From the NCBI GenBank assembly GCA_965242595.1, contig OZ251464.1:1278235-1342234 (forward strand): a stretch of DNA of 64,000 bases, read 5' to 3'. Positions within the stretch are counted from its first letter, which is position 1. Each line of letters begins with the position of its first letter. Both the position numbers and the translations under genes were made by a program. This document shows, piece after piece, positions 5,671-43,640 of the stretch. Origin of the DNA: Alphaproteobacteria bacterium (GTDB lineage: Bacteria > Pseudomonadota > Alphaproteobacteria > SP197). The notes beneath the pieces were generated by a model that was not told the DNA's origin, searched no databases, and worked only from the letters and a program-made list of their open reading frames with translations.

Positions 5671-6381
5671 GTGGGGGAGCGTTTCGTCCTTTCGCGCCAG
5701 AGCCTGGCCAGCGGCGCGCTTTCGCCCCATCTGGAGGCGGCCGCGGCGGCCGGCCTGATCGAGTTGCTGCCGGAGGAGGAGCGCGAGGCCAGTCGCCGCC
5801 ACATGCTGGCCGCCCATCCGCCGGGGCGCGACCTTTATGTCTTCGCCTGCGGCTCGCTGATGTGGAATCCCGCCTGCGATGTGGCGGCGGCGCTGCCGGC
5901 CCTGGTTCGAGGCTGGCACCGCCGCTTCAATCTGTGGACCCATCTGGGGCGTGGAACGGCGGCCTTTCCCGGCCTGGCGCTGGGGCTGGAGCCGGGCGGG
6001 GCCTGCCGCGGCCTGGCCCTGCGCATCGCCGCCGCCAGGGTGGAATCGGAAACCCGCCTGATCTGGCGGCGCGAGATGCTGGCCGGCGCCTACCGTCCGG
6101 TATGGCTCCAGGTCCGGCTGGCCACCGGCCCCGCCGCCGCCATCGGCTTTGCCATCGACCGTAGCTATCGTCGCTATGGCCACCGCATCCCCTTCGCCGT
6201 GCAGGCCCGCCATCTCGCCCTGGCCGAAGGGCCGCTGGGGCCGGCCATCGAATATCTGGAAAACACCGTGGCGGCGCTGGACGCCATGGGCCAGAGGCGC
6301 GGGCCGATGCACGATCTGCTGCGCGCGGCCCGCGCCTGGCGCCGCCACCATCGCCATCGCCTCCTGGGCCGGGGCCCGTGA
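5671..6381 (+). CDS. chaC: ChaC-like gamma-glutamylcyclotransferase
   Basis: DLYVFACGSLMWNP...GWHRRFNLWTHLGRGT matches the ChaC core (VWIFGYGSLMWNP). The N-terminal LSRQSLASG resembles E. coli ChaC MITRDFL. GTG start; the stop overlaps the downstream DMT gene start (GTGA). Confidence 0.7.
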   Translation: MGERFVLSRQSLASGALSPHLEAAAAAGLIELLPEEEREASRRHMLAAHPPGRDLYVFACGSLMWNPACDVAAALPALVRGWHRRFNLWTHLGRGTAAFPGLALGLEPGGACRGLALRIAAARVESETRLIWRREMLAGAYRPVWLQVRLATGPAAAIGFAIDRSYRRYGHRIPFAVQARHLALAEGPLGPAIEYLENTVAALDAMGQRRGPMHDLLRAARAWRRHHRHRLLGRGP

Positions 6382-7346
6382 GCGACCCGCCGCAGCGTGG
6401 TGCCGCCCCCGGGACCGAACCCGTGGGCAGGCCCCAGGACAAACCCCTGCAGGGCATCGTTCTGATCGTGGTTGCGGTCGGCATCTGGGCGCTGCACGAC
6501 GCCGCCGCCAAATGGTATGCCGCCTTCTACCCGGTGTTCGTCATCCTGTTCTGGCGCAGCCTGTTCGGCGCCCTGCCGGTGTTCCTGCTGGCCAGCCGCC
6601 AGGGCGGTTTGCAGCGCATGACGGCCCGTCTGCATGTGCTGTGCCTGCTGCGCGGCACCGCCGGCTTCGGCGCCTTCGCCTGCTTCGTCTTCGCCCTGCC
6701 GTTGATGCCGCTGGCCGATGCCTTGGCCGTGGCCATGGCGGCGCCGATCTTCATCACCGCCGCCGCCGCCTTCGTGCTGAAGGAGCCGGTGGGTCCCCAT
6801 CGCTGGGGCGCGGTGCTGGCTGGCTTCGCGGCGGTGCTGTTCATGCTGCGCCCCGGCGGCGACATCCCGCTGGACGGCGCCGCCCTGCTGCTGGCCAGCA
6901 TCCTGTTTTTCACCACCGCCATGATGATGACCCGCCATCTGGGCCGGGTCGTCACCACCGCCTCGCTCACCATCTACACGGCCATCGCCTTTGCCGTGCT
7001 CAGCGCCATCGGCGCCGCCTTTTCCTGGACCTGGCCGCAATGGCAGGACGGCCTGGTGCTGGCGGCGGTGGGGCTGATGGCGGGGCTGGCCCAATACGCC
7101 ATGACGGCCGCCTTCCGCATCGCCCCGCCGGCCGTGCTGGCGCCGTTCGAATATACCGGCCTGGTGTGGGGCATCCTGCTGGGCCTGCTGCTGTGGAACG
7201 AATGGCCCAGCCCCGACATGGCGGTCGGCGCCGGCGTCATCGTCGCCTCGGGCCTCTATATCGTCTATCGCGAGCGCCTGGCCGCCCGACGCCGCCGCGC
7301 CGGAAAGGGGCGTGGCACAGCAGCACGCCCCCGTGCTGCGTCATAA
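6378..7346 (+). CDS. DMT superfamily (EamA-like) transporter, 10 TM
   Basis: Two EamA-like halves with characteristic hydrophobic periodicity. The C-terminal codons and stop codon are supplied by the first copy of the palindromic repeat cluster at 7321. Confidence 0.75.
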   Translation: MSDPPQRGAAPGTEPVGRPQDKPLQGIVLIVVAVGIWALHDAAAKWYAAFYPVFVILFWRSLFGALPVFLLASRQGGLQRMTARLHVLCLLRGTAGFGAFACFVFALPLMPLADALAVAMAAPIFITAAAAFVLKEPVGPHRWGAVLAGFAAVLFMLRPGGDIPLDGAALLLASILFFTTAMMMTRHLGRVVTTASLTIYTAIAFAVLSAIGAAFSWTWPQWQDGLVLAAVGLMAGLAQYAMTAAFRIAPPAVLAPFEYTGLVWGILLGLLLWNEWPSPDMAVGAGVIVASGLYIVYRERLAARRRRAGKGRGTAARPRAAS

Positions 7347-7437
7347 AGCAGAGTCCGGCACGCCCTCGTGCTGCGTCATAAAACAGAGTCCAGCACGCCC
7401 TCGTGCTGCGCCGCGCCCGGCACCGTGCTATGCTGCG
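7321..7437. repeat. Tandem array (3 copies plus a degenerate 4th) of a 35-bp unit containing a palindrome: CAGCACGCCC(C/T)CGTGCTGCGTCATAAA(A/G)CAGAGTCC
   Basis: Seen directly. 7-bp stem CAGCACG/CGTGCTG with a 4-nt loop. The same core, inverted, recurs at 8904-9000. Confidence 0.7.
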
Positions 7438-7457
7438 CCCGTCGAGGGAGGAGAGGG

Positions 7458-7874
7458 ATGAGCGAGACCATCGTCGGCGGCTGCCAGTGTGGCGCCGTGC
7501 GCTACCGGCTTTCGGCCCCCGTGCAGCGGGTGGAACACTGCCACTGCTCCATGTGCCGGCGGCTGCACGGGGCGCTGTTCACCAGCTTCGGCGTCGCGCG
7601 GCGTGCCGATTTCCAGCTGGAAGGCGAAGACGCCCTGGGCGACTACCCCAGCTCGCCCGGCGTCCACCGCCGTTTCTGCACCGCCTGCGGCGGCCAGATC
7701 GCGGTCGAGGTCGATACCAAGCCGGAGCAGATCGTCGTCTGCCTGGGCAGCCTGGATGCCGGCATGGCCCCTGGCCACGACCCGGCGGCGGAACGCCACG
7801 CCTGGTGGGGATCGAAGGTGGCCTGGTACGACCCCGGCGACAGCCTGCCCCGCCACCACGGTTCCGGAGGCTGA
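7458..7874 (+). CDS. GFA (glutathione-dependent formaldehyde-activating enzyme) / CENP-V family protein
   Basis: GGCQCGAVRY...CHCSMCRR...CTACG zinc-binding Cys pattern. Strong SD GGAGAGGG. Confidence 0.8.
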   Translation: MSETIVGGCQCGAVRYRLSAPVQRVEHCHCSMCRRLHGALFTSFGVARRADFQLEGEDALGDYPSSPGVHRRFCTACGGQIAVEVDTKPEQIVVCLGSLDAGMAPGHDPAAERHAWWGSKVAWYDPGDSLPRHHGSGG

Positions 7875-7875
7875 G

Positions 7876-8307
7876 ATGAACCCCACCGCCGCTTCCCCGC
7901 TGACCGGCGGCTGCCTGTGCGGCAGCGTCCGCTTCCAGCTCACCGCCCGCCCTTCCGATGTCTATCACTGCCACTGTTCCGTCTGCCGCAAATGCCAGGG
8001 CGCGCTTTACCCCACCTATGCCATGGTCCCCCGCGCCGACTTCCGCCTGGTGCAGGGCGCCGATGCCCTTTCCCGCTATGACAGCTCACCCAGCCTGCAC
8101 CGCCGTTTCTGCCCCACCTGCGGCGCCCATGTCTTCGCGGAGATGGACGATTCGCCCGACATCGTTTCGATCTGCGTCGCCAGCCTGGACGACGGCGCCG
8201 ACCCCGGCGGCAGGGAGGGGAGGGAGCGTCATATCTTCTGGGAATCGCGCTGCGGCTGGTACGAGCCGAACGACGCCCTGCCGCGCATGGTCGAGTTTGG
8301 CGACTAG
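7876..8307 (+). CDS. GFA/CENP-V family protein (tandem paralog)
   Basis: [10 protein letters not shown]...CHCSVCRK...CPTCG. SD GGAGG. Begins 1 nt after the upstream paralog stop. Confidence 0.8.
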
Positions 8308-8338
8308 CGGCGGCTGAGCGGGCCGCAGCGACGGCAGC

Positions 8339-10144
8339 GTGGCCGCGTTCCTTGCCCCATCCGTGTTCGATGGCGCCGCGCCCATGGCGGCGCCGGTGGG
8401 CAATGCCGCCTTCGCGCCGTCGCCCCGGGCCGGCCCCGCCCATGGCAGCTTCGAGGGCCGGCTGGAGATCGCCGGCGGGCGCCTCGCCAGCGCCTGCGCC
8501 GCCCTCGATCAGGAATTCGCGCTGGGTGGCGCGCCGCGCCGTTTTCCCTCGCTCGCCCTCGCCTTCACCAGCCATCGGGGCGAGCTGCTGCCGCTGTGGC
8601 GCGGCCTTCACCGCCGCCCCGACCGGGCGAGCTATTGGGATGTCATGGTCGGACCCGGGCGCATCTGGTCCGAACCCGGCGACGGCGCCCGGAGCCGCGC
8701 CGCCTTTCCCTTCCAGCTCTCCAACCAGGGCGAGAACGACAGCCACCACGGCGTCGCCTGCCTGCTGTTCGACGGCGAAGGTGTCAGCGGCCTGGTGCTG
8801 CAGGTGACGGTGGAAACCCGGCCCTATGACCTCCCCGCCGGCTTCGACCTCTGGGGCCGCCTCGCCGTCTCCTTCACCCCCGGCCCGGGCCCGGGCGCTT
8901 CCCATGACGCAGCACGGGGGCGTGCTGTCGCTTTCCATGGTGCAGCACGGGGGCGTGCTGTCGCTTTCTATGATGCAGCACGGGGGCGTGCTGCCGAGCG
9001 CCGCGGCGCCCCCCCCATTCGCCCGCTTGACGAGCTGCGCCCTGCCGTTGGCGACCGGCTGCTGGATGCCCTCGCCACGGGCACCGGCAGCGACAGCGAG
9101 ATCGTCGCCGGGCTGGCCTGCGACGGTGCCATCTATGCCAGCGCCGTCGCCACCCGGCACGGCCCCTTTCCCTATCCCCGGGCCATGCGCTTCGGCCTGT
9201 GGTCGGCCACCAAGGCGGCCTTCGCCACCACCGCCCTGCTGCGCCTCGCCCATCGTCTGGGGCCGGAGGTGGCCACCACCCGCATCGCCGATGTCATCCC
9301 CGCAGCCGCCGCGCATCCCCACTGGCAGCGGGTGACGATCCGCCACTGCCTCGACATGGCCTCGGGCATCGGCACCGCTGCGGGCCGCGCCGGGGCGCCC
9401 GACATCCATGCCGACAACCTGACCACACCCGAAGACGCTGCCGCCTCGCCGGAGGCGGCGCGCAGCTACCGCGCCTATCGCGACTGGTTCCAGGCGCCCT
9501 CTCTGGCCGGCAAGCTGGCGGCGGCCTTCGCCTGCCCTTCCTATCCCTGGGGGGCGGGCGAGGTGGCGCGCTATCGCGATCAGGATCTGTTCATGGCCGG
9601 CATCGCCATGGACGCCCTCTGGAAGCGTCGGCAGGGGCCGGATGCGGACCTTTTCGCCATGGTTGCCGAGGAGGTCTTCGCCCCCATCGGCATCGTCGGC
9701 GCCGATATCGGCCGCACCGTCGAAGCGGATGGGCGCCAGGGCGCGCCGCTGGGCGCCTTCGGCCTCTATCTGGGCATCGACGATGTGGCCAGGCTCGGCC
9801 GTCTGCTGGCCGGCGGCGGCGTGCATCGCGGGCAGCGTCTGCTGGAGCCGACGCTGCTCGCTGCCTGCTTCGACGGCCGCTTCGACAAGGGGCGCGCCAC
9901 CGGCACCTTCACGGCCGAAGGCCGCGAGATCGCCTACAGCCTCGCCTGTTGGCAGCTGCCCATGACCACCCGCGCCGGACGGCAGGTGCGCATCGCCACC
10001 ATGCGGGGCTATGGCGGCCAGATCGTGCAGCCGCTGTGGAACGGCATCGTCTGCTTCCGCTTTGCCTGCGATCCGCCCCATCCCGACCGGAGCTACGACG
10101 CCCTGAAGCTGCCCCGCATCGCCGACGCCCTGAAGCCGCTCTAG
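8339..10144 (+). CDS. Serine hydrolase (beta-lactamase/transpeptidase-like fold) with an N-terminal domain of unknown function and an in-frame 99-bp repeat insertion
   Basis: S-x-x-K motif in [18 protein letters not shown]-terminal ...MRGYGGQIV resembles the KTG/GxG region of class C-like serine hydrolases. 601-aa ORF with GTG start. Codons 190-222 ([11 protein letters not shown] x3) are encoded by the palindromic repeat cluster. It could alternatively be a disrupted gene. Confidence 0.5.
8904..9000. repeat. Tandem array (3 copies) of a 33-bp palindrome-containing unit ATG(A/G)(C/T)GCAGCACGGGGGCGTGCTGTCGCTTTCC. It is the reverse complement of the 7321 cluster core.
   Basis: Seen directly. 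The shared 24-bp core is CAGCACGCCCCCGTGCTGCGTCAT. It lies inside the CDS 8339-10144 in frame (11 codons per unit). Confidence 0.7.
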
Positions 10145-10152
10145 ACGCCGCC

Positions 10153-10971
10153 TCACCTGGCATCGGGGAAGAACAGCTGCTGGCCGTCCACCCAGTAGGA
10201 GGCGATGGCCGCCTGGCCCTGCGGCGACAGCAGCCAATCGATGAAGGCCTGGCCTTCGGCCGCCTTGACATGGGGGAAGACCTCCGGGTTCACCAGGATC
10301 GCGCCATATTGGTTCAGCAGCGCGTCGTCGCCTTCCACATGCAGCACCAGATCGCCCTTGTTGCGAAAGGCGACCCAGGTCGCCCGGTCGGTCAGGGCAT
10401 AGGCGCCCAGCCCCGCCGCCGTGTTCAGCGTTGCCCCCATGCCGGAGCCGGTCTCCAGATACCAGCTGCCGCTGGCCGCCTGCGGGTCGATGCCGGCCGC
10501 CTGCCACAGGGCCATTTCCTTGTGGTGGGTGCCGGAATCGTCGCCTCGCGAGGCAAAGGGCGCGGTGGCGGCGGCGATGGCGGCCAGCGCGGCCGGGGCG
10601 TCCGCCATGCCGGCGATGGCGGCCGGGTCCGCCGCCCGGCCCACGATCACGAAGTCGTTGTGCATCAGGTCGAAGCGCTTTACGCCCAGGCCGGCGGCGA
10701 CGAAGGCATCCTCCGCCTCTCTGGCGTGAACGATCAGCACATCGCCGTCGCCGCGCGAGGCATTGCCGATCGCCTGGCCGGTGCCCACCGCCACCACCCG
10801 CACCTGGATGCCCGTGGCCCGTTCGAACTGGGGCAGGATGTGGTCGTATAGGCCGGAATTGCGGGTGGAGGTGGTCGATTGCACCACGATGAAGGGTGTC
10901 TCGCCGTTGTCTGGCAGGGCGGGTCCGGTCCAGGCCAGGGCGGCGATCAGGCAGGCGGCGCGAAACGGCAT
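10153..10971 (-). CDS. Periplasmic substrate-binding protein, PBP_like_2 / TupA-like (tungstate or related oxyanion), with no adjacent permease or ATPase genes
   Basis: [51 protein letters not shown] matches the TupA/PBP2 pattern TTSTxxSGLxxxLxPxFExxxGIxVxVVAVGTGxAL. Signal peptide [18 protein letters not shown]. Confidence 0.55.
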
Positions 10972-11037: not shown

Positions 11038-11594
11038 TCAGTCGCTCTCCAGCTCGCTGTCCCAATAGAGGTAGTCGCGCCAGTCCCGGTGCAGGAAATT
11101 GGGCGGAAAGGCGCGCCCGTTCTCGCGCAGCTGCCAGGTGGAGGGCACCGCCGGTGCTCGCTGGGGGATCATGTTTGCTTCTTGGGGGGTGCGGTTGGAC
11201 TTGCGGATGTTGCAGCGGCTGCAGGCGGTGACGACGTTGGCCCAGGTGGTTCGGCCGCCGCGGGAGCGGGGGGTGACGTGGTCGAAGGTCAGCTCGCGCG
11301 TTTCGAAGCGGCCGTTGCAGTACTGGCAGGAGAAGCGGTCGCGCAGGAAGACGTTGAAGCGGGTGAAGGCCGGGCGCCGGCTTAGCGGGATGAACTGGCG
11401 CAGGGCGATGACGCTGGGAAGGCGCATGGCGAGGCTGGGCGAATGCACCACCCGCTCATATTCGGACAGCGTTTGCACCCGGCCCATGAACACCGCCTTC
11501 ACCGCGTCCTGCCAGGACCACAGCGAGAGCGGGAAGTAGCTGAGCGGGCGAAAATCCGCATTCAGCACCAGCGCGGGACAGGCTTGGGGGAGCA
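11038..11594 (-). CDS. HNH endonuclease (McrA-like 5-methylcytosine restriction-type, single domain)
   Basis: CQYCNGRF...[13 protein letters not shown]...[12 protein letters not shown] is the HNH motif. The N-terminal [24 protein letters not shown] is typical of this roughly 185-aa family. GTG start with SD GAGGAG. Confidence 0.65.
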
Positions 11595-11770
11595 CCGGAC
11601 ATCTCCTCGGGGTCTGTCGCCTTCCGCCCTGCGCCTTGGGCCGGGCGGCAGCGGCGCGCCATCTTAGCCGCAATGGCGCGCCGTGGCACCGCATTTTGCC
11701 TCTCCTCGCCCACGTGCTGCGTTATGGGATATGCTGTGTTACGATAAGGGGCGCGGGAGGCTCCGAGACC

Positions 11771-13489
11771 ATGACCCGATGGGACAAATCCAGACTGCCC
11801 AGCCGCCATGTCTCGCTGGGGGCGAAGAGCGCGCCGCACCGCGCCTTCTATTACGCCATGGGCATGAGCGACCAGGAGGTGGCCCAGCCCTTCGTCGGCG
11901 TCGCCACCACCTGGAACGAGGCGGCGCCCTGCAACATCACGCTGATGCGCCAGGCCCAGGCCGTGAAAAAGGGGGTGAAGGCCGGCGGCGGCACGCCGCG
12001 CGAGTTCACCACCATCACCGTCACCGACGGCATCGCCATGGGCCATGCCGGCATGAAATCGTCGCTGGTCAGCCGCGAGGTGATCGCCGATTCGGTGGAG
12101 CTCACCATGCGCGGCCATTGCTACGACGCCCTGGTGGGGCTGGCCGGCTGCGACAAATCGCTGCCCGGCATGATGATGGCGATGCTGCGCCTCAACGTGC
12201 CTTCCGTGTTCCTCTATGGCGGCTCGATCATGCCCGGGCGCTATCGCAACCGGGATGTCACCATCGTCGATGTGTTCGAAGGCGTCGGCGCCCATGCGGC
12301 CGGGGCCATGTCCGACGCCGAACTCGACCTTCTGGAGCATGTCGCCTGCCCTTCCGGCGGTTCCTGCGGCGGCCAGTTCACGGCCAACACCATGGCCACG
12401 GTGTCGGAGGCCATCGGGCTGGCGCTTCCCAATTCGGCCATGACGCCGGCGCCGTTCGAAAGCCGCGACGCCTTTGCCGAGGCTTCGGGCCAGGCGGCGA
12501 TGCGGCTTGTTGCCGACAATCTCCGCCCGCGCGATATCGTGACCCGCAAGGCGCTGGAAAATGCCGCCACCGTGGTCGCCGCCACCGGCGGTTCCACCAA
12601 TGCCGGCCTGCATCTGCCGGCCATCGCCCATGAGGCGGGCATCGCCTTCACGCTGGACGATGTCTGCGCCATCTTCCGCCGCACCCCCTATATCGCCGAT
12701 CTCAAGCCCGGCGGGCGCTATGTCGCCAAGGATCTTTACGGAGTGGGCGGCGTGCCGGTGCTGATCCGGACGCTGCTGGACGGTGGCTGGCTTCATGGCG
12801 ACACGCTCACCGTCACCGGGCGCACCCTGGAGGAGAACCACGCCGACATCGTTTTCCCGGACGACCAGGACGTGATCCGCCCGGCCAGCGCGCCGCTTTC
12901 GCCCAGCGGCGGGGTCGTCGGGCTGAAGGGCAATCTGGCGCCGGAAGGGGCGATCGTGAAGGTGGCCGGCATGAAGACCCAGAGCTTCCGCGGCCCTGCC
13001 CGCTGCTTCGACAGCGAAGAGGCCTGCCTGGAGGCGGTGCTGGCCCAGCGCTTTGCCGAAGGCGATGTGCTGGCGATCCGCTATGAAGGCCCCAGGGGCG
13101 GCCCCGGCATGAGGGAGATGCTGGCGACCACCGGCGCCCTTTACGGCCAGGGCATGGGCGAAAAGGTGGCGCTGATCACCGATGGGCGCTTTTCCGGCGC
13201 CACCCGCGGCTTCTGCATCGGCCATGTCGGCCCCGAAGCCGCTGTCGGCGGCCCCATCGGCCTGCTGCAAGACGGCGACACCATCGCCATCGACGCCGAA
13301 CGCGGGCGCCTGGACGTGGAGCTGAGCGCGGACGAGCTGGAGCGTCGCCGCCAAGCCTGGCGCCCGCGCCAGACCGACTATACCTCCGGCACCATCTGGA
13401 AATACGCCCAGACCGTAGGCGCCGCCCATCTGGGCGCCGTCACCCACCCCGGCGGCCACGGCGAAAGCCACGTCTTCGCGGATCTTTAG
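11771..13489 (+). CDS. ilvD: Dihydroxy-acid dehydratase (IlvD/EDD family)
   Basis: 572 aa. [16 protein letters not shown] Fe-S ligands, ...[15 protein letters not shown]..., and N-terminal [14 protein letters not shown] are typical of IlvD. Confidence 0.8.
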
Positions 13490-13506
13490 AGCGGATGGGG
13501 GGCAAG

Positions 13507-14181
13507 ATGATCGTTGTCATTCAATGTGCTAAAAGCAAAAGGGATCATGCTGGCCATCTCGTGAATAACGCCGGCCGAAAAGTGTTGTTTGTCGCTCGTC
13601 CCGAAGAAGCCTCCGCTTGTGAAGGTTACATCTTTGCACGACCGGACGACGACGATGGCACGGGTGTCTCATGGCGGAACCAACTGTTGGAGTACAATAA
13701 AAATTCCAATAGCAATCCGCTAGGTTTGTTGCCGGCGGTGGAACTCTACAAACATCCGATCTACGAACACCTGGCGCGACATTATGGACGCGAGAATCTC
13801 TACATACTTTCGGCAGGTTGGGGTCTGATTGCAGCAGATTTTCTGACACCAGCCTACGACATCACATTCAGCAGTGACGCTGAGTCCTGTCATCGACGGC
13901 GTCAAAGCGATATTTATTGCGACTTCCACATGCTGCCGGACGATACGACAGAGCCTGTCATATTCCTCGGTGGCAAGAGTTACGTTAAACTTTTTTGCTC
14001 ATTAACCAGGAACGTGAAAGGTAAGCGATATGTTTTTCATAAAGGCAAGCAATATGTTTTTCATGTATCCCGGGGTGAACCCCATGCTCCGAAGTGTTTT
14101 TTCAAGAGATTCGAGACAACAGCCCGAAGTTGGCACTATGAATGCGCTCACGCCCTTATCGAAGGCAGGATCGGTATCTGA
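13507..14181 (+). CDS. Hypothetical protein (224 aa) in a low-GC islet. No family recognised; Cys/His-rich C-terminus.
   Basis: GC content drops sharply over 13495-14200 (AT-rich codons, e.g. aaaagcaaaagggatcatgct). G-rich SD before ATG 13507. Protein MIVVIQCAKSKRDHAGHLVNNAGRKVLFVARPEE...YILSAGWGLIAADFLTPAYDITFSSDAESCHRRRQSDIYCDFHMLPDD.... Confidence 0.55.
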   Translation: MIVVIQCAKSKRDHAGHLVNNAGRKVLFVARPEEASACEGYIFARPDDDDGTGVSWRNQLLEYNKNSNSNPLGLLPAVELYKHPIYEHLARHYGRENLYILSAGWGLIAADFLTPAYDITFSSDAESCHRRRQSDIYCDFHMLPDDTTEPVIFLGGKSYVKLFCSLTRNVKGKRYVFHKGKQYVFHVSRGEPHAPKCFFKRFETTARSWHYECAHALIEGRIGI

Positions 14182-14219: not shown

Positions 14220-14630
14220 TCACCCCGCCTTGGCGCTGCTGAAGCCCTCCTTTCTGGGCAGGTCGTCGCCGGTCTTGAACCAGGGGATGCTGTCTGCCGT
14301 CATGGTGTGCATGGCGGGTGGGAAGGCGGCGGGGGTGTCCAGGGTGGCGGTGTAGATGTGCACCTCGCCCGGCCAGGCATCGCCCTCATAGGTGAGCGAA
14401 CTGCCGCAGGCGGCGCAGAAGCCGCGCCGCACCCCGGGCGAAGAGCGGTAGATGGCCCGCTTGCCAGCGATGTCCTGATAGCACCCGGCCACCACGCCGA
14501 CAAAGGCGGCCACCGGCGCCCCGGTTGCCCGCTGGCAGCTGCGGCAATGGCACAGGCTGGTGAACCTGGCGGGCGTGGCGATGCGATAGCGCACCCTGCC
14601 GCACATGCAGCCGCCTTCGTAGCTCGCCAT
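14220..14630 (-). CDS. GFA/CENP-V family protein (third paralog in window)
   Basis: MASYEGGCMCGRVRY...CHCRSCQR...CAACG. SD GGGGAGGGATGGG. Confidence 0.75.
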   Translation of the reverse strand: MASYEGGCMCGRVRYRIATPARFTSLCHCRSCQRATGAPVAAFVGVVAGCYQDIAGKRAIYRSSPGVRRGFCAACGSSLTYEGDAWPGEVHIYTATLDTPAAFPPAMHTMTADSIPWFKTGDDLPRKEGFSSAKAG

Positions 14631-14653
14631 CCCATCCCTCCCCGAAGGTCGTC

Positions 14654-24435: not shown

Positions 24436-24510
24436 CCCCGTCATTGCGCCCCCTGTCATTGCGCTCTTGTCGTTGCGCCCCCCTGTCATTGTGCCCCTTG
24501 TCATTGCGAA
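24436..24510. repeat. Five perfect-period direct repeats of a 15-bp unit CC(C/T)TGTCATTGCGC(C) in the intergenic region
   Basis: Seen directly: ccccgtcattgcgcc / ccctgtcattgcgct / cttgtcgttgcgccc / ccctgtcattgtgcc / ccttgtcattgcgaa. The array ends 43 bp upstream of the ABC ATPase gene, and is also upstream of the divergent NHLP precursor gene. Confidence 0.6.
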
Positions 24511-24552
24511 TGAGTTGCAGTTAGTCTTCCCGCCTCCATCGGGCCGGGACGG

Positions 24553-30121: not shown

Positions 30122-31117
30122 GTGGCGCGCTTTGCCCGCCGCCGGCTGCCCCCCCCGGCCACCGTCACGGCCGGCATCCTGGCCGCGGCGCTGCTGGCGG
30201 CGTGCAGCCAGCCGCCGGCCCCGGTCACCTTCGGCGCCTCGTCGGGCGGGGCCAGCCCGCCGCTGCCGCCCGAACTGCCGCCCCAATTGCCGATAACGGA
30301 CCATGCCGGCGCCGTTCCGCCTCTGCCCGGGTTCAAACCGCAACCGCCCGCCGCCGCGCCGGCCCAGGGCGGCGACGAGGCCCCCCTGGCCGACGATCTC
30401 ATCGCCCATATCGAGGCGATCCTGCTGGCCGAGGAGGCCCAGGGCGAACCGCAGCCGGTGGCGACCCAGACCCTGGAGACGGAGGCCGGAACGGTGGTGG
30501 TTCTCACCGTGGCGTCCGGCGATACCCTCTACGGGCTGGCGCGGCGGCTGGGCGTCACCGCCCGCCAGCTGATCGAGGCCAACGGCCTGGCGGCGCCCTA
30601 CGACCTGCTGATCGGGCAGAAGCTGAAGGTGCCGGCCGCCGGCGCTGCCGCCGCGCCGCCGGCCCCAGATGCCAGCCCGCCGCCGGTGACCGGGCCGGTC
30701 GAGGCGCCGCCGCTCCCCGCCTCCCGGGCCGATGGCGAACTACGCTTCGCCTGGCCGGTGGCGGGCCGCGTCATCTCCTCCTTCGGGCCGAAAAGCGGCG
30801 GGCGCCACAACGACGGCATCAACATCGCCGCCCCGGCCGGCACGCCGGTGCGGGCGGCGGAGGACGGCGTGGTCGCCTATGCCGGCGACGAGCTGCGAGG
30901 CTATGGCAATCTGGTGCTGCTGCGCCACGCCGATGGCTGGGTCAGCGCCTATGCCCACAACGCCGAAAACCTGGTCTCGCGCGGCCAGACCGTGTTGCGG
31001 GGCGACGTCATCGCCAGCGTCGGGGCCAGCGGCGGCGTCACCCACCCCCAATCCCATTTCGAACTGCGCCGCGGCACCGAAGCCGTGGACCCGCTGCCCC
31101 ATCTGGGCAGCCCTTAG
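30122..31117 (+). CDS. nlpD: LysM + M23 peptidase lipoprotein (NlpD-like)
   Basis: Lipobox LLAAC. LysM segment VASGDTLYGLARRLGVTARQLIEANGL. M23 motifs HNDGINIAAPAGTPVRAAEDGVV...GNLVLLRHADGWVSAYAH...HFELRRG. Confidence 0.75.
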   Translation: MARFARRRLPPPATVTAGILAAALLAACSQPPAPVTFGASSGGASPPLPPELPPQLPITDHAGAVPPLPGFKPQPPAAAPAQGGDEAPLADDLIAHIEAILLAEEAQGEPQPVATQTLETEAGTVVVLTVASGDTLYGLARRLGVTARQLIEANGLAAPYDLLIGQKLKVPAAGAAAAPPAPDASPPPVTGPVEAPPLPASRADGELRFAWPVAGRVISSFGPKSGGRHNDGINIAAPAGTPVRAAEDGVVAYAGDELRGYGNLVLLRHADGWVSAYAHNAENLVSRGQTVLRGDVIASVGASGGVTHPQSHFELRRGTEAVDPLPHLGSP

Positions 31118-31245
31118 GCGGGAAGCGGCCGGCGCCGGAATAGCAGTTGTGAGCAGGCAGGAAAATCTATTGTGCCGACGCGATCTCAAACTACCGCTTT
31201 GTAGCATTTCTCTTCAGCATTGGGCGGACAACGCTCTGTGAAACA

Positions 31246-32055
31246 TCATACCTCCACACACTCAAAGCGCAGTTGATTTTCCGTGACCTGCTTGTCATGG
31301 GGCACCGTGCATACCCGTAGGCAAGGAACGAAAGCCTGCCCGCAAACAGCCCATTTCTTATTCCAAACACCGTCTGGGAACAGACGTCGGCTATGACTCG
31401 TTACATGCCTTCCCCAACACGTGCTATCGGTGAACGGTCTCCCGAGATCCTCTACGTCTGTTGCTTTGAGAAATCCCAAATAAACAAGAACCACTGGATA
31501 ACCCAGTTCGGTGAGTTTCCAGGACCAGGAGAAACGGTTGGATATCTGATAGCAGAGGTCGCGCGATAGTGACCAATCATGTCCTGTCGCTTTCGTTAAG
31601 GCCATACTGGCCTCACAAATACATTTTTCAATTCGTTTGTGATTGCGTCGGGAGTCTTCACTCGCATCAGATTTTAATGGTTTACCATTGAGACTCAATT
31701 CTTTTGTGTGAGCTTTTGCTTCGACGAGAAGTAATCCCCTTGCGCCATCAATTTTGCAAGTACTGGCGATATCGAAGTTCGGAGTATTAGGGTTATTAGA
31801 ACTCACTGCAATCCACCAATGGCATAAAGTATCTTGATCCTTCTCCGGCAACAGGGGTGATCGATCCAAACGTGCTTCCTCGGTCCGACAAAATCCTTGT
31901 GGTAGCCAGCTGTCATTCGCCGACACTTCGATCCATGGTGCAGCCAGCTTCGTCAAGCGCGCGGCGACTTCCTCAGGCTTCCCATGAGTAAGCCAGTGGC
32001 AACGTGGCTTACTTCCTCTACGCCCTTTCGCGGGCAGCTTATTGAGCAGGCTCAT
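31246..32055 (-). CDS. PD-(D/E)xK nuclease-like protein (candidate restriction/defence endonuclease) in a low-GC islet
   Basis: About 48-50% GC versus about 70% in the flanks. Motif ...NTPNFDIASTCKIDGARGLLLVEAKAH... fits D-x(n)-E-x-K of the restriction endonuclease-like fold. The 270-aa ORF starts MSLLNKLPAKGRR. An alternative start lies 19 codons upstream. A 13-codon upstream mini-ORF with a good SD overlaps the start. Confidence 0.6.
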   Translation of the reverse strand: MSLLNKLPAKGRRGSKPRCHWLTHGKPEEVAARLTKLAAPWIEVSANDSWLPQGFCRTEEARLDRSPLLPEKDQDTLCHWWIAVSSNNPNTPNFDIASTCKIDGARGLLLVEAKAHTKELSLNGKPLKSDASEDSRRNHKRIEKCICEASMALTKATGHDWSLSRDLCYQISNRFSWSWKLTELGYPVVLVYLGFLKATDVEDLGRPFTDSTCWGRHVTSHSRRLFPDGVWNKKWAVCGQAFVPCLRVCTVPHDKQVTENQLRFECVEV

Positions 32056-37254: not shown

Positions 37255-38661
37255 TTAGGCCTGGGTTCCGGTTCCCTTGGTCGAGTTGCAGGCCTGGCAG
37301 AGCAGTTGCAGATTGTCGCTGTGGTCGCTGCCGCCCTTGATCTTCGGCGTGATGTGATCGACGGTCAGGTTGCGGAAGGGAAAATGGGTCATGCAGCCGT
37401 TGCAGCGGCCTTCCTGCTGGCCATAAAGGGTGTGCTTGTGGGTGCGATAATCCGGCAGCTTGCCCAGATCGGTGCGCGCCGGAATATCGCTTCTGTGATC
37501 GACGTCATAGAAGATGCCCATCTCCTGCTGCAGGCGGGAGACCACCAGCTTCGCGGCCAGGGGCGAGAGGTCGATCCCTATCCAGTGGCGCTGCAACTGT
37601 TCGGCGGCGACGAGAGCCGTCGCGCAGCCGCAGAAGGGGTCGAGCACGATGTCGCCCGGCCTGGACGACGCGCGGATCACACGTTCGAGCAAGGCGAGCG
37701 GCTTCTGTGTGGGATAGCCTGTGCGTTCCTTGCTGTGCGCGGAAACAGGGTTGATATCCAGCCATATTGCGGTCGGAATCTGGCTCTTCTCCCGATTTAA
37801 ATAACGCTTCAATGCGGGAGTTTTCCCTTGCAGCGGCCATGCAATGAGCCCGGTTTTGTCCAGCATGTCGAGGCGCGCATGAATGCCCTTTATCGAACGA
37901 TAACCGGGGATAAAATTATCTTCCACCCATCTGGCATATTCGCCGGTCAGCGGCACCGCCCAGTGTCTGCCGACCTTTCCTGGGTCGATGCCGCGCCAGG
38001 GCTGGCCGCTTTCGCCCGTTCTCACCTCGGAGGCGGTCAGATCGCCCAGTCTGTAGATGCCATGCTTGTCCTCGTGGCGATAGAATTTGCGCACGTAATC
38101 TGGATCCAAAGGCACCCGCACCGCATCTTTGTCGATAGGCGCGCCATAGAAAAGAAGATTGTCCACCACCTTGCCAAAGCCCTTGCTGTCGCTATGCGCC
38201 GATTGCCGCTTCCAGACGATCTCGTTGCGAAACATGGAGGCACCGAACAAGCCGTCCATAAGCGCCTTGAGATAATGGCCCGCCGTCGGATCGCAATGCA
38301 GATAGATCGAACCCGTCGGCTTCAACACGCGGCGCAACTCCAGCAGCCTGACCGCCATCATGCACAGATAGGCCTTCATGCCCCTGGAGTGGGTCAGGGC
38401 CGCCGCCTCGATGGCGGCATATACGGCGGGTTCCCGGTCGGCGATCTCGCCATGCCAGGCCAGATCCACGTCGTCGAGGGTCCAGGCGTCCTTGAAGGCG
38501 GCCCCGGCGGCCTCGCTCCCTATCGGCGCCGAATAGGTCTTGTTGCTGTTGAAGGGCGGATCCAGATAGATCAGATCCACGCTTTCGCTGTTCAGGCCGC
38601 GCAGGATGTCGAGATTGTCGCCGGTCCACAGGGTGCGGTTGTTCCAGTTGGGCGCTGCCAT
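37255..38661 (-). CDS. DNA methyltransferase (N6-adenine/N4-cytosine, Pfam N6_N4_Mtase, beta class) fused to a C-terminal HNH endonuclease domain
   Basis: DPPF catalytic motif (IYLDPPFNS) near the N-terminus and the SAM motif LDPFCGCATALVAAEQL later give beta-class order. C-terminal CNGCMTHFPFRNLTVDHITPKIKGGSDHSDNLQLLCQACNSTK is a canonical HNH. Confidence 0.75.
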   Translation of the reverse strand: MAAPNWNNRTLWTGDNLDILRGLNSESVDLIYLDPPFNSNKTYSAPIGSEAAGAAFKDAWTLDDVDLAWHGEIADREPAVYAAIEAAALTHSRGMKAYLCMMAVRLLELRRVLKPTGSIYLHCDPTAGHYLKALMDGLFGASMFRNEIVWKRQSAHSDSKGFGKVVDNLLFYGAPIDKDAVRVPLDPDYVRKFYRHEDKHGIYRLGDLTASEVRTGESGQPWRGIDPGKVGRHWAVPLTGEYARWVEDNFIPGYRSIKGIHARLDMLDKTGLIAWPLQGKTPALKRYLNREKSQIPTAIWLDINPVSAHSKERTGYPTQKPLALLERVIRASSRPGDIVLDPFCGCATALVAAEQLQRHWIGIDLSPLAAKLVVSRLQQEMGIFYDVDHRSDIPARTDLGKLPDYRTHKHTLYGQQEGRCNGCMTHFPFRNLTVDHITPKIKGGSDHSDNLQLLCQACNSTKGTGTQA

Positions 38662-43421: not shown

Positions 43422-43554
43422 GTCAACTCTCCGGGGCGCCCTTGGCGCTGCGGCGGCGGCAGGTTTGGGCGGGCGCTATCTGGCACCGCCGCCGCGGCGC
43501 GTCAACCTCGCGCCCTGGCAGCCCCCGCCGGTGGCGCAGCGCCATCCCTGCAAG

Positions 43555-43640
43555 CCCCGACACCCCCCCGACACCCCTGCGACACCCTGTCGGCAGCCTG
43601 TCCACACCCTGTCGGGCGCCTGTCGGCAGCCTGTTGCGCC
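43555..43640. promoter_or_regulatory. Helically phased short repeats (CGACACCC x3, then CCTGTC(G/C) x5 at 11-12 bp spacing) in the topA / enolase-superfamily divergent intergenic region
   Basis: Seen directly: ccccgacacccccccgacacccctgcgacaccctgtcggcagcctgtccacaccctgtcgggcgcctgtcggcagcctgttgcgcc. Confidence 0.4.

Follow-up and report, generated by a model that had tools for sequence, protein, structure and literature searches.

The 64-kb window analyzed here (64,000 nt of contig OZ251464.1, assembly GCA_965242595.1, positions 1,278,235 to 1,342,234, from an alphaproteobacterium of the SP197 lineage) carries two arrays of a short palindromic repeat, designated A and B, which lie in opposite orientation on either side of a pair of GFA-domain genes. 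Array A covers the 3′ end of an EamA/DMT-family transporter gene, and array B lies in frame within a serine hydrolase gene. The insertions are real and recent, and they are of an ordinary kind of bacterial repeat, not a gene-carrying transposon. The family is confined to one small group of uncultured alphaproteobacteria; it is new, private to that lineage, and unusual in its all-direct arrangement. It is probably a low-copy, lineage-restricted hairpin repeat resembling the repetitive extragenic palindromes (REPs) of other bacteria, which has been amplified locally into arrays of variable number and persists where it is neutral. The family occupies at least four unrelated sites in two sister species, and each site is empty in the other lineage. 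Presence or absence of whole arrays is polymorphic, copy number differs between near-identical strains, and the tails of the units are homogenized within arrays.

Repeat arrays in the window

The description of palindromic tandem repeats in two inverted clusters, made in the initial annotation, is borne out by Tandem Repeats Finder, a scan for an 18-mer, and a covariance model. Tandem Repeats Finder places array A at 7321-7410 (period 35, 2.6 copies, 92% matches, score 159) and array B at 8896-8993 (period 33, 3.0 copies, 92% matches, score 168). Each strand has three copies of an 18-nt perfect palindrome, CAGCACG-CCCY-CGTGCTG, which makes six in the window: the 18-mer CAGCACGCCCYCGTGCTG lies on the plus strand at 7321, 7356 (one mismatch), and 7391, and on the minus strand at 8910, 8943, and 8976. 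At up to three mismatches, 0.69 chance matches to this 18-mer are expected, and none of 100 shuffled sequences reached 8. The arrays match each other in inverted orientation over 24 nt at 100% complementarity (7321-7344 against 8904-8927) and a second time over 36 nt at 86%. A covariance model built from 26 units, with which the whole window was searched with filters off, returns exactly six units at 30-43 bits, while the next match scores 13 bits. Neither the palindrome scan nor the covariance model finds a copy outside arrays A and B in the 64 kb, single units included, and self-BLAST detects no other non-coding dispersed repeat in the window, which has a G+C content of 70%. The units are as follows.

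7321-7355, plus strand: unit A1, core CAGCACGCCCCCGTGCTG and tail CGTCATAAAGCAGAGTC (43.1 bits)
7356-7390, plus strand: unit A2, core CGGCACGCCCTCGTGCTG with a G-T wobble at pair 2 and loop CCCT, tail CGTCATAAAACAGAGTC (40.3 bits)
7391-7437, plus strand: unit A3, intact core at 7391-7410 with an unrelated tail (30.3 bits for 7389-7423)
8896-8993, minus strand: array B, three units of 33 nt, the minus-strand unit being CAGCACGCCCCCGTGCTG followed by CRYCATRGRAAGCG (42.4, 31.0, and 41.8 bits)

Three or more copies had been claimed for cluster A. Three cores are indeed present, but only two of them belong to full units, as the third unit keeps its core alone. By inspection, CGGCACCGTGCTATGCTGCG (7418-7437) may be a decayed fourth unit that has lost its loop, a stretch to which the covariance model gives no score; the A3 stretch, which extends to 7437, stops 20 nt before the start codon of the first GFA gene. 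Array B is not an assembly artifact, because it also occurs on an independent metagenome scaffold (L004) that is 98.4% identical to window positions 7503-8963.

Anatomy of the repeat unit

In an alignment of 26 units, each unit comprises a nearly invariant, G+C-rich hairpin core of 21 nt, C(A/G)GCACGCCC(C/T)CGTGCTGC, which can be read as C(A/G)GCACG-CCC(C/T)-CGTGCTGC, and a purine-rich tail of 9-17 nt that loosely follows C-R-N-(C)ATG-RA-GAAAG(C). The stem has 7 bp (8 bp including the flanking G/C), and the loop of 4 nt has two forms, CCCC and CCCT, which coexist in almost every array. Units are strictly head to tail within every array, with periods of 30, 33, and 35 nt; that of the intragenic array is 33. 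A single hairpin folds at –12.8 kcal/mol as RNA and –9.5 kcal/mol as DNA, whereas folding of the whole arrays is not clearly superior to that of shuffled sequence (z = –2.3 and –0.4). Read in one of its two orientations, the hairpin precedes a pyrimidine/T-rich tract, and a simple scan flags two units as terminator-like.

Core and tail differ sharply in conservation. Core identity is 0.94 within a locus and 0.95 between loci, while tail identity is 0.71 within a locus and 0.35 between loci. Pairing is kept in 98.8% of stem cells among 24 distinct units. Of the seven pairs of the stem, five show no variation at all, and compensatory double changes are absent; the stem is therefore conserved as a sequence, not just as a fold. 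This invariance suggests that some protein may recognize the sequence itself.

Empty orthologous sites and a near-identical scaffold

Four sister-species loci (L003, L013, L014, and L015), 83-84% identical to the window at the DNA level, were available for comparison. The window and all four share the gene order desaturase, ChaC, EamA, GFA, GFA, hydrolase, binding protein, HNH, ilvD, and no repeat unit occurs anywhere in the four loci. Both arrays are thus lineage-specific gains, because the syntenic sister loci are repeat-free at both sites. The GFA pair predates the arrays, since it is found in the same order and orientation in the four repeat-free loci, and the GFA genes are resident bystanders, not cargo of the arrays. 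Two 17-bit matches to the covariance model, at 17444 of L013 and 15802 of L014, were considered as units and rejected, as they fall in a conserved coding motif. Within the EamA coding sequence of the window, CAGGACGGCCTGGTGCTG (7044-7061) resembles the palindrome with two stem mismatches and lies at the same position in L003, L013, L014, and L015; it is taken as a chance resemblance because it is kept in all of these relatives.

Within the window's own species, strain comparison covers the array B side, through L004. The GFA2 protein of this scaffold is identical to that of the window. The two array B units that it contains both have loop CCCT, a silent change for the hydrolase (CGG to CGA). 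The junction of the second unit continues directly into the sequence that follows the array in the window, and the scaffold, a short-read assembly, ends 5 nt later. This suggests that array B has two units in L004 as against three in the window. Exact-protein look-ups gave no match for any of the window proteins queried (the hydrolase, P0001, as well as GFA1, EamA, ChaC, and the binding protein).

The family at unrelated loci

Arrays of the same core are also present in a related genome (L005), at two unrelated loci, which upholds the view that this is a dispersed family. L005 was reached through a protein (P0080, which contains QHAPVLRMKES four times) returned by a query of concatenated six-frame peptides; the silence of that query elsewhere is uninformative, as its positive control, P0001, was not returned either, probably through composition filtering. 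The genes of L005 are unrelated housekeeping genes (rph, rdgB, hemW, lppC, and gshB), among which there are 13 copies of the palindrome. The rph-rdgB spacer holds a period-33 array of at least eight units (four, a scaffold gap, and four more), and a period-30 array of five units in the opposite orientation lies downstream of gshB. These two arrays are ~5.6 kb apart, and the pair in the window 1.56 kb.

A further locus, L016, is 98-99% identical to L005 in its flanks, and its contig name suggests a long-read assembly. At the rph-rdgB site it has 2+3 units as compared to 4+4 in L005, and at the gshB site it has none as compared to five. The proposed variability of copy number is supported, as array size differs between near-identical strains (L005 and L016, with L004 suggestive of the same). 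In place of the gshB array, L016 has ~2 kb of DNA of lower G+C content (L016 15000-16940 against L005 6997-7453) that encodes a D12-class (Dam-like) methyltransferase and two small open reading frames (ORFs), and the site downstream of gshB looks like an insertion hotspot. The corresponding locus of a third lineage, L017, is 82-91% identical to L016 and contains no repeat units in 21 kb; here rph overlaps rdgB, and the spacer after gshB is 70 nt.

L005 and L016 appear to belong to the sister species: L005 and L014 come from the same sample, L005 and L016 share a second repeat family with L003 and L013-L015, and the cluster sizes match. The sister species then has two array loci that are empty in a third lineage, and the window's species has two that are empty in the sister species. 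This reciprocal pattern of filled and empty sites fits repeated, independent seeding.

Two observations concern the sister species itself. The second dispersed family, unrelated to the hairpin repeat, is G+C-rich and palindromic, ~55-190 nt in length (e.g., CGAGCGTCGGCGTCCCGCCGGCAAACGGGCCGCAGGGCCCGCCGACGC), and occupies several intergenic spacers (L016 9062-9114, 7922-8107, and 11309-11395; L005 768-1066, 7316-7420, and 3434-3504; L013 13286-13478; L014 11652-11869; L003 8302-8401). Its copies in L005 and L016 are 90-97% identical to those in L003 and L013-L015, and in L005 it adjoins the two hairpin arrays; no copy in the window was detected by blastn. In addition, rdgB (Ham1-like; L005 1365-2129, L016 9273-10004) is called with an N-terminal extension of 40-50 aa that runs through the hairpin array, with its ATG inside a repeat tail. 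No canonical start codon is present near the L017 position in the sister-species gene; translation begins either at a non-canonical codon or at one that the repeat provides.

Distribution in sequence collections

Searches of wider collections returned little. In a collection of genome contigs that does not include the source genome, a 24-mer query matched only two chance singletons (Roseinatronobacter and a Caldilineaceae metagenome-assembled genome). Joint Genome Institute metagenomes gave no matches with the 24-mer and none with a tandem-pair pattern allowing gaps of 10-19 nt. Viral contigs contained seven isolated 18-mers, which is the chance level, and blastn against plasmids gave only noise at E~0.9. 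No Rfam family matches the window at gathering thresholds, and none that is relevant matches 7250-9050 at E≤1. There are no tRNA genes in the window, and the ~45 ORFs examined by Pfam scan are ordinary chromosomal genes (argS, serS, tatC, secDF, topA, RNase R, ilvD, and others).

Coding consequences

The genes at the locus are as follows.

6378-7346, plus strand: EamA/DMT-family transporter (Pfam PF00892, E=7e–20)
7458-7874, plus strand: GFA-domain gene 1, GFA1 (PF04828, E=3e–23)
7876-8307, plus strand: GFA-domain gene 2, GFA2 (PF04828, E=7e–27)
8339 or 8381 to 10144, plus strand: serine hydrolase of ~600 aa with a beta-lactamase-like domain (PF00144, a weak match at the gathering threshold)
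10153-10971, minus strand: periplasmic binding protein gene (ORF list and Pfam scan)

The coding consequences claimed in the initial annotation are upheld: EamA has acquired a different stop and C-terminus, and in the hydrolase a linker has been expanded in frame. Unit A1 contains the final eight codons of EamA (AARPRAAS) as well as its TAA stop (7344-7346). EamA of the sister species ends differently, in ...GKGAGGDP-TGA, and is six codons longer upstream, and the 140-155 nt spacer that follows it is unrelated to the window until the ribosome-binding site of GFA1.

In the hydrolase, codons 189-221 (nt 8903-9001) are made up of three in-frame 33-nt units, located between the N-terminal beta domain and the catalytic domain. 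While the period and frame claimed for this cluster hold, the encoded peptides are not all identical and the protein has gained 23 aa (69 nt) relative to its orthologues. The net gain is 23 aa and not 33 because the final array B unit is aligned to residues of native sequence; for the same reason the DNA boundaries of the array are blurred, native sequence having been replaced. Of 67 hydrolase homologues found, 20 (at 41-80% identity) were aligned, as were 11 members of the nearest cluster, and residues 189-211 of the window protein have no counterpart in any aligned homologue (~30). An ancient coding repeat is ruled out, as all aligned orthologues are without the segment; together with the syntenic relatives, repeat-free at both sites, this supports an element over an ancient coding feature.

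The protein has otherwise been left intact: Ser289-x-x-Lys292 and the full C-terminus are conserved. An AlphaFold model (mean predicted local distance difference test score, pLDDT, of 82; predicted template modeling score of 0.87) has pLDDT <50 at residues 185-207, a stretch flanked on either side by a domain folded with confidence, and a modeled helix (206-221) takes in the third unit. According to the model, the array B insert occupies an inter-domain linker that is predicted to be disordered, and expansion of this linker by Ala/Arg/Gly-rich sequence is likely tolerated by the enzyme. Phase variation, another suggestion made for these repeats, is not supported in a frame-shifting form, given the intragenic period of 33 (3 x 11) and the position of the EamA stop in the first unit. 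For annotation purposes, the C-terminus of EamA and the hydrolase insert should both be regarded as repeat-derived.

Origin, spread, and possible function

A mechanism can be proposed for a REP-like repeat of this kind. A unit would rarely be seeded at a new site, possibly often from an array nearby; seeding near an existing array is proposed because both genomes have an oppositely oriented pair 1.5-6 kb apart. Once seeded, an array could grow or shrink by replication slippage or by unequal exchange between direct units, and the same processes could homogenize the tails within it. Selection would then retain only harmless placements, namely intergenic sites, gene 3′ ends, and disordered linkers entered in frame. 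Array A would represent the gene-end case, having replaced the stop and last codons of EamA. For placements within genes, a period that is a multiple of three would be needed, as in array B of the hydrolase (33 nt, encoding an Ala/Arg/Gly-rich peptide).

Several points weigh against this reading. Within 64 kb the family sits only at two neighboring sites, and it was not seen at other loci of the window's species, while the placement of L005 and L016 in the sister species is indirect. The arrays of L004 and L005 come from short-read assemblies that break or are gapped inside the arrays. The ~45 ORFs of the window, scanned with Pfam, include no transposase and no REP-associated tyrosine transposase (RAYT). 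At both window sites native sequence has been replaced, with no target-site duplication and no clean insertion boundary, and the last unit of array B aligns with native AARRARAAERR, such that part of its core could be native-derived. Finally, the contrast in conservation between core and tail is equally compatible with a cis-acting function.

Such a function is the main rival explanation. The invariant palindrome of 18-21 nt would here be an operator or loading site for a dimeric DNA-binding protein (a regulator, a nucleoid protein, or a partition protein), and units of 30-35 nt would be phased at about three helical turns, as in iteron and sopC-like arrays or NtrC-type enhancer pairs. The core is ~95% identical across loci and two species in which orthologous genes are only 83-84% identical, whereas identity in the tails has fallen to 35%; conservation of the stem extends to its sequence and is not merely structural; the periods (30, 33, and 35 nt) approximate three turns; and oppositely oriented pairs of arrays a few kb apart occur in both genomes. 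Against this, the arrays are missing from the orthologous positions of close relatives, one of them is present in one strain and absent from another whose flanks are 98-99% identical, copy number is unstable, and one array lies inside a coding region and another over a stop codon. No conserved partner gene stands beside the arrays, and there is no match to Rfam or to a known motif. Taken together, these data make a cis-acting role unlikely. A sigma-54 promoter or NtrC site was considered for the core and rejected, on inspection only, as its spacing is off by one base from the consensus. An RNA-level role, in which the units would be intrinsic terminators, 3′-end stabilizers, or processing signals, as has been proposed for many REPs, has a poor chance of being correct. 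The hairpin is stable (–12.8 kcal/mol), it is followed in one orientation by the pyrimidine/T-rich tract, with two terminator-like units, the gshB array of L005 lies downstream of its gene in the terminator-like orientation, and array A comes directly after the EamA stop. Yet neither array A nor the rph-rdgB array has that orientation on the strand a terminator would need, and in array B it lies within the coding sequence of the hydrolase, so that a terminator role does not explain the arrays consistently. Moreover, the arrays fold not clearly better than shuffled sequence (z = –2.3 and –0.4), show no covariation, and are dispensable in close relatives.

The remaining rivals concern the history of the two arrays. 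They could have originated in a purely local event, with one array arising in place and being copied once, inverted, 1.5 kb away (e.g., through replication template switching), and with no mobile family in the genome of the window. The 64 kb contain just two sites, which lie 1.56 kb from each other and are oppositely oriented; this would agree with a local event, as would the overlap of the last array B unit with native-like residues, the lack of a transposase nearby, and the similar oppositely oriented pair in L005 (~5.6 kb apart). Nevertheless, an identical core and a homologous tail consensus recur at rph-rdgB and gshB in a different species, which calls for dispersal, the alternative being that a 21-nt sequence arose independently, which is implausible. 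In addition, tails at other loci are homologous to the VAF/spacer part of array B units, a part that duplication of native hydrolase sequence cannot yield, and a purely local origin is very unlikely. It is scarcely credible that a composite or invertible element, which carries or flips the GFA pair, has the inverted arrays as its ends. This idea was prompted by the way in which the opposite arrays bracket the GFA genes and by their inverted matches (24 nt perfect and 36 nt at 86%), but the composite picture fails because the EamA-GFA-GFA-hydrolase order is identical in the four repeat-free sister loci, where the pair has the same place, orientation, and neighbors. The genes bracketed in L005 are housekeeping genes, and L016 keeps them with one array missing. 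Inversion between the clusters is physically conceivable, and nothing in the present data suggests it; it would cut the hydrolase in two, and L004 has the orientation of the window at the array B side.

The REP-like hairpin repeat remains the preferred reading. It is conceivable, though quite unlikely, that the 21-nt palindrome is the recognition site of an undescribed sequence-specific system: either a mobilizing enzyme unrelated to RAYTs, which would lay down arrays strictly head to tail, in many cases as pairs of opposite orientation separated by a few kb, or a DNA-binding protein that would load on phased arrays. If so, the arrays would not be passive REP-like debris and would represent a tandem-hairpin element of a new class, and the family would matter more if conservation of its core reflected a dedicated protein partner. 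For the CGTC REPs of alphaproteobacteria, to which this family does not belong, no dedicated transposase is known (Di Nocera et al., 2013; PMC3733652), and a low-copy family with recent, datable insertions would be a tractable place to seek a mobilizer. The locus is a small but clear case of short hairpin repeats colonizing a compact genome, with repeat-free orthologous sites for comparison, and the arrays are possible strain-typing markers for an uncultured lineage.

Other features of the window

Apart from the arrays, the window contains several features of separate interest. A third GFA-domain coding region (14220-14640, minus strand) lies beside an arylmalonate-decarboxylase-like gene and is kept in the sister loci. 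A gene for an ankyrin-repeat protein (56301-57092, plus strand) lies in an island of low G+C content (0.55 vs. 0.70) and includes a 102-nt tandem DNA repeat (56671-56920; 2.5 copies, 85% matches). Other stretches of low G+C content are found at 31001-32000 (0.53) and 13001-14000 (0.60), the latter with a DUF6884 ORF (13495-14181) and a 24-nt A+T-rich direct repeat (14017-14064). An N6/N4 DNA methylase domain and a C-terminal HNH nuclease domain are joined in one ORF at 37255-38661 (minus strand), and a separate HNH gene is located at 11038-11721 (minus strand). Directly upstream of an ABC-transporter ATPase gene (start near 24514), five copies of the ~15-nt GTCATTGCGCCCCCT at 24436-24508 may form a putative array of binding sites. 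Just upstream of topA (minus strand, start near 43475), the stretch 43555-43634 comprises three copies of CCCGACACCC and then three of CCTGTCGGCAG, the two being mutually inverted 11-nt repeats.

Comparison with known systems

In the broad sense, REPs are imperfect palindromes of 20-40 nt that form G+C-rich stem-loops, as do the units described here. They typically have a high copy number throughout the genome and are mostly extragenic; for this family, two arrays and no single units are seen in 64 kb, with two further loci in the sister species. As described by Di Nocera et al. (2013; PMC3733652), GTAG and CGTC REPs are like the window family in being short (20-40 nt), G+C-rich stem-loops with a 4-nt loop that are restricted to species and mostly intergenic; their termini can provide stop codons, some lie in frame in ORFs, and some form tandem clusters at few loci. 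Similar properties (stop codons, in-frame positions, tandem clusters at few loci) are described for small palindromic repeats more generally, including GTAG/CGTC REPs, the Rickettsia palindromic elements (RPEs), BRE, and others (PMC3733652; PMC3184786).

Membership in the REP or bacterial interspersed mosaic element (BIME) families, or in the Correia family, as initially suggested, is not upheld: there is no head tag, no alternation, no terminal inverted repeat, and no target duplication, and no RAYT was seen in the window. An unpaired GTAG or CGTC at the 5′ head of the stem is missing; in the unit alignment CGTC appears only in units wA1, wA2, wB1, and L4B1, where it lies 3′ of the stem (so that the head reads GACG), and GTAG does not appear. 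In contrast to CGTC REPs, which are typical of alphaproteobacteria, the stem begins with C-A/G and not with A/T pairs, and it has no CCA tail. REPs occur mostly as inverted dimers, and for CGTC REPs head-to-tail dimers are termed "negligible" (PMC3733652), while the window units are all head to tail. The density of two arrays in 64 kb is also low for REPs.

BIMEs of enterobacteria and REPINs (REP doublets forming hairpins) of Pseudomonas (PMC3116915; PMC3337134) are clusters of hairpins with short conserved linkers that are non-autonomous and variable among strains, as is the window family. BIMEs alternate the orientation of their REPs, whereas arrays of the window family have a single orientation throughout. 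REPINs are inverted REP pairs, set at a fixed short distance, that form one long hairpin and are mobilized by a RAYT, while each unit of the window forms its own small hairpin. There are no inverted neighbors within the arrays, the nearest being 1.5 kb away in the window and 5.6 kb away in L005. Correia elements and miniature inverted-repeat transposable elements (100-300 nt) have terminal inverted repeats and target-site duplications; the 30-35 nt unit has neither, and comparison of filled and empty sites reveals replaced native sequence and no duplication. A CRISPR array is ruled out as well, because the would-be spacers (the tails) are near-identical within an array and the only CRISPR match in Rfam is sub-threshold, unrelated, and outside the arrays. 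A composite transposon or gene cassette is ruled out by the presence of the GFA genes in the repeat-free loci L003, L013, L014, and L015.

Array B of the hydrolase has the hallmarks of an RPE-type insertion, as it is in frame, absent from orthologues, and leaves the protein intact. Insertion of RPEs within a gene (Ogata et al., 2000, cited in PMC3184786 and PMC3733652) likewise adds a surface or linker peptide in frame to a protein that is kept, with orthologues lacking it. RPE-1, however, is ~100-150 nt and occurs as single copies, while the window has a 33-nt unit in three copies, of low copy number, in an alphaproteobacterium of free-living type with 70% G+C.

The arrays also resemble a dispersed family of variable-number repeats, with head-to-tail arrays at four loci in two species and copy-number differences among strains. 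In Mycobacterium tuberculosis, the loci of mycobacterial interspersed repetitive units (MIRUs), which are variable-number tandem repeats, belong to a unit family dispersed as head-to-tail arrays that vary among strains and overlap stop or start codons of flanking genes within operons (Supply et al., cited in PMC3184786). MIRU units are 46-101 nt and are not simple palindromes, whereas the unit of the window family is 30-35 nt, with a perfect palindromic core and a locus-specific tail. By analogy, the organization of the family appears closest to that of MIRU-type dispersed variable-number repeats, and the family itself is a short interspersed hairpin repeat outside the definitions of GTAG/CGTC REPs, BIMEs, REPINs, and Correia elements.

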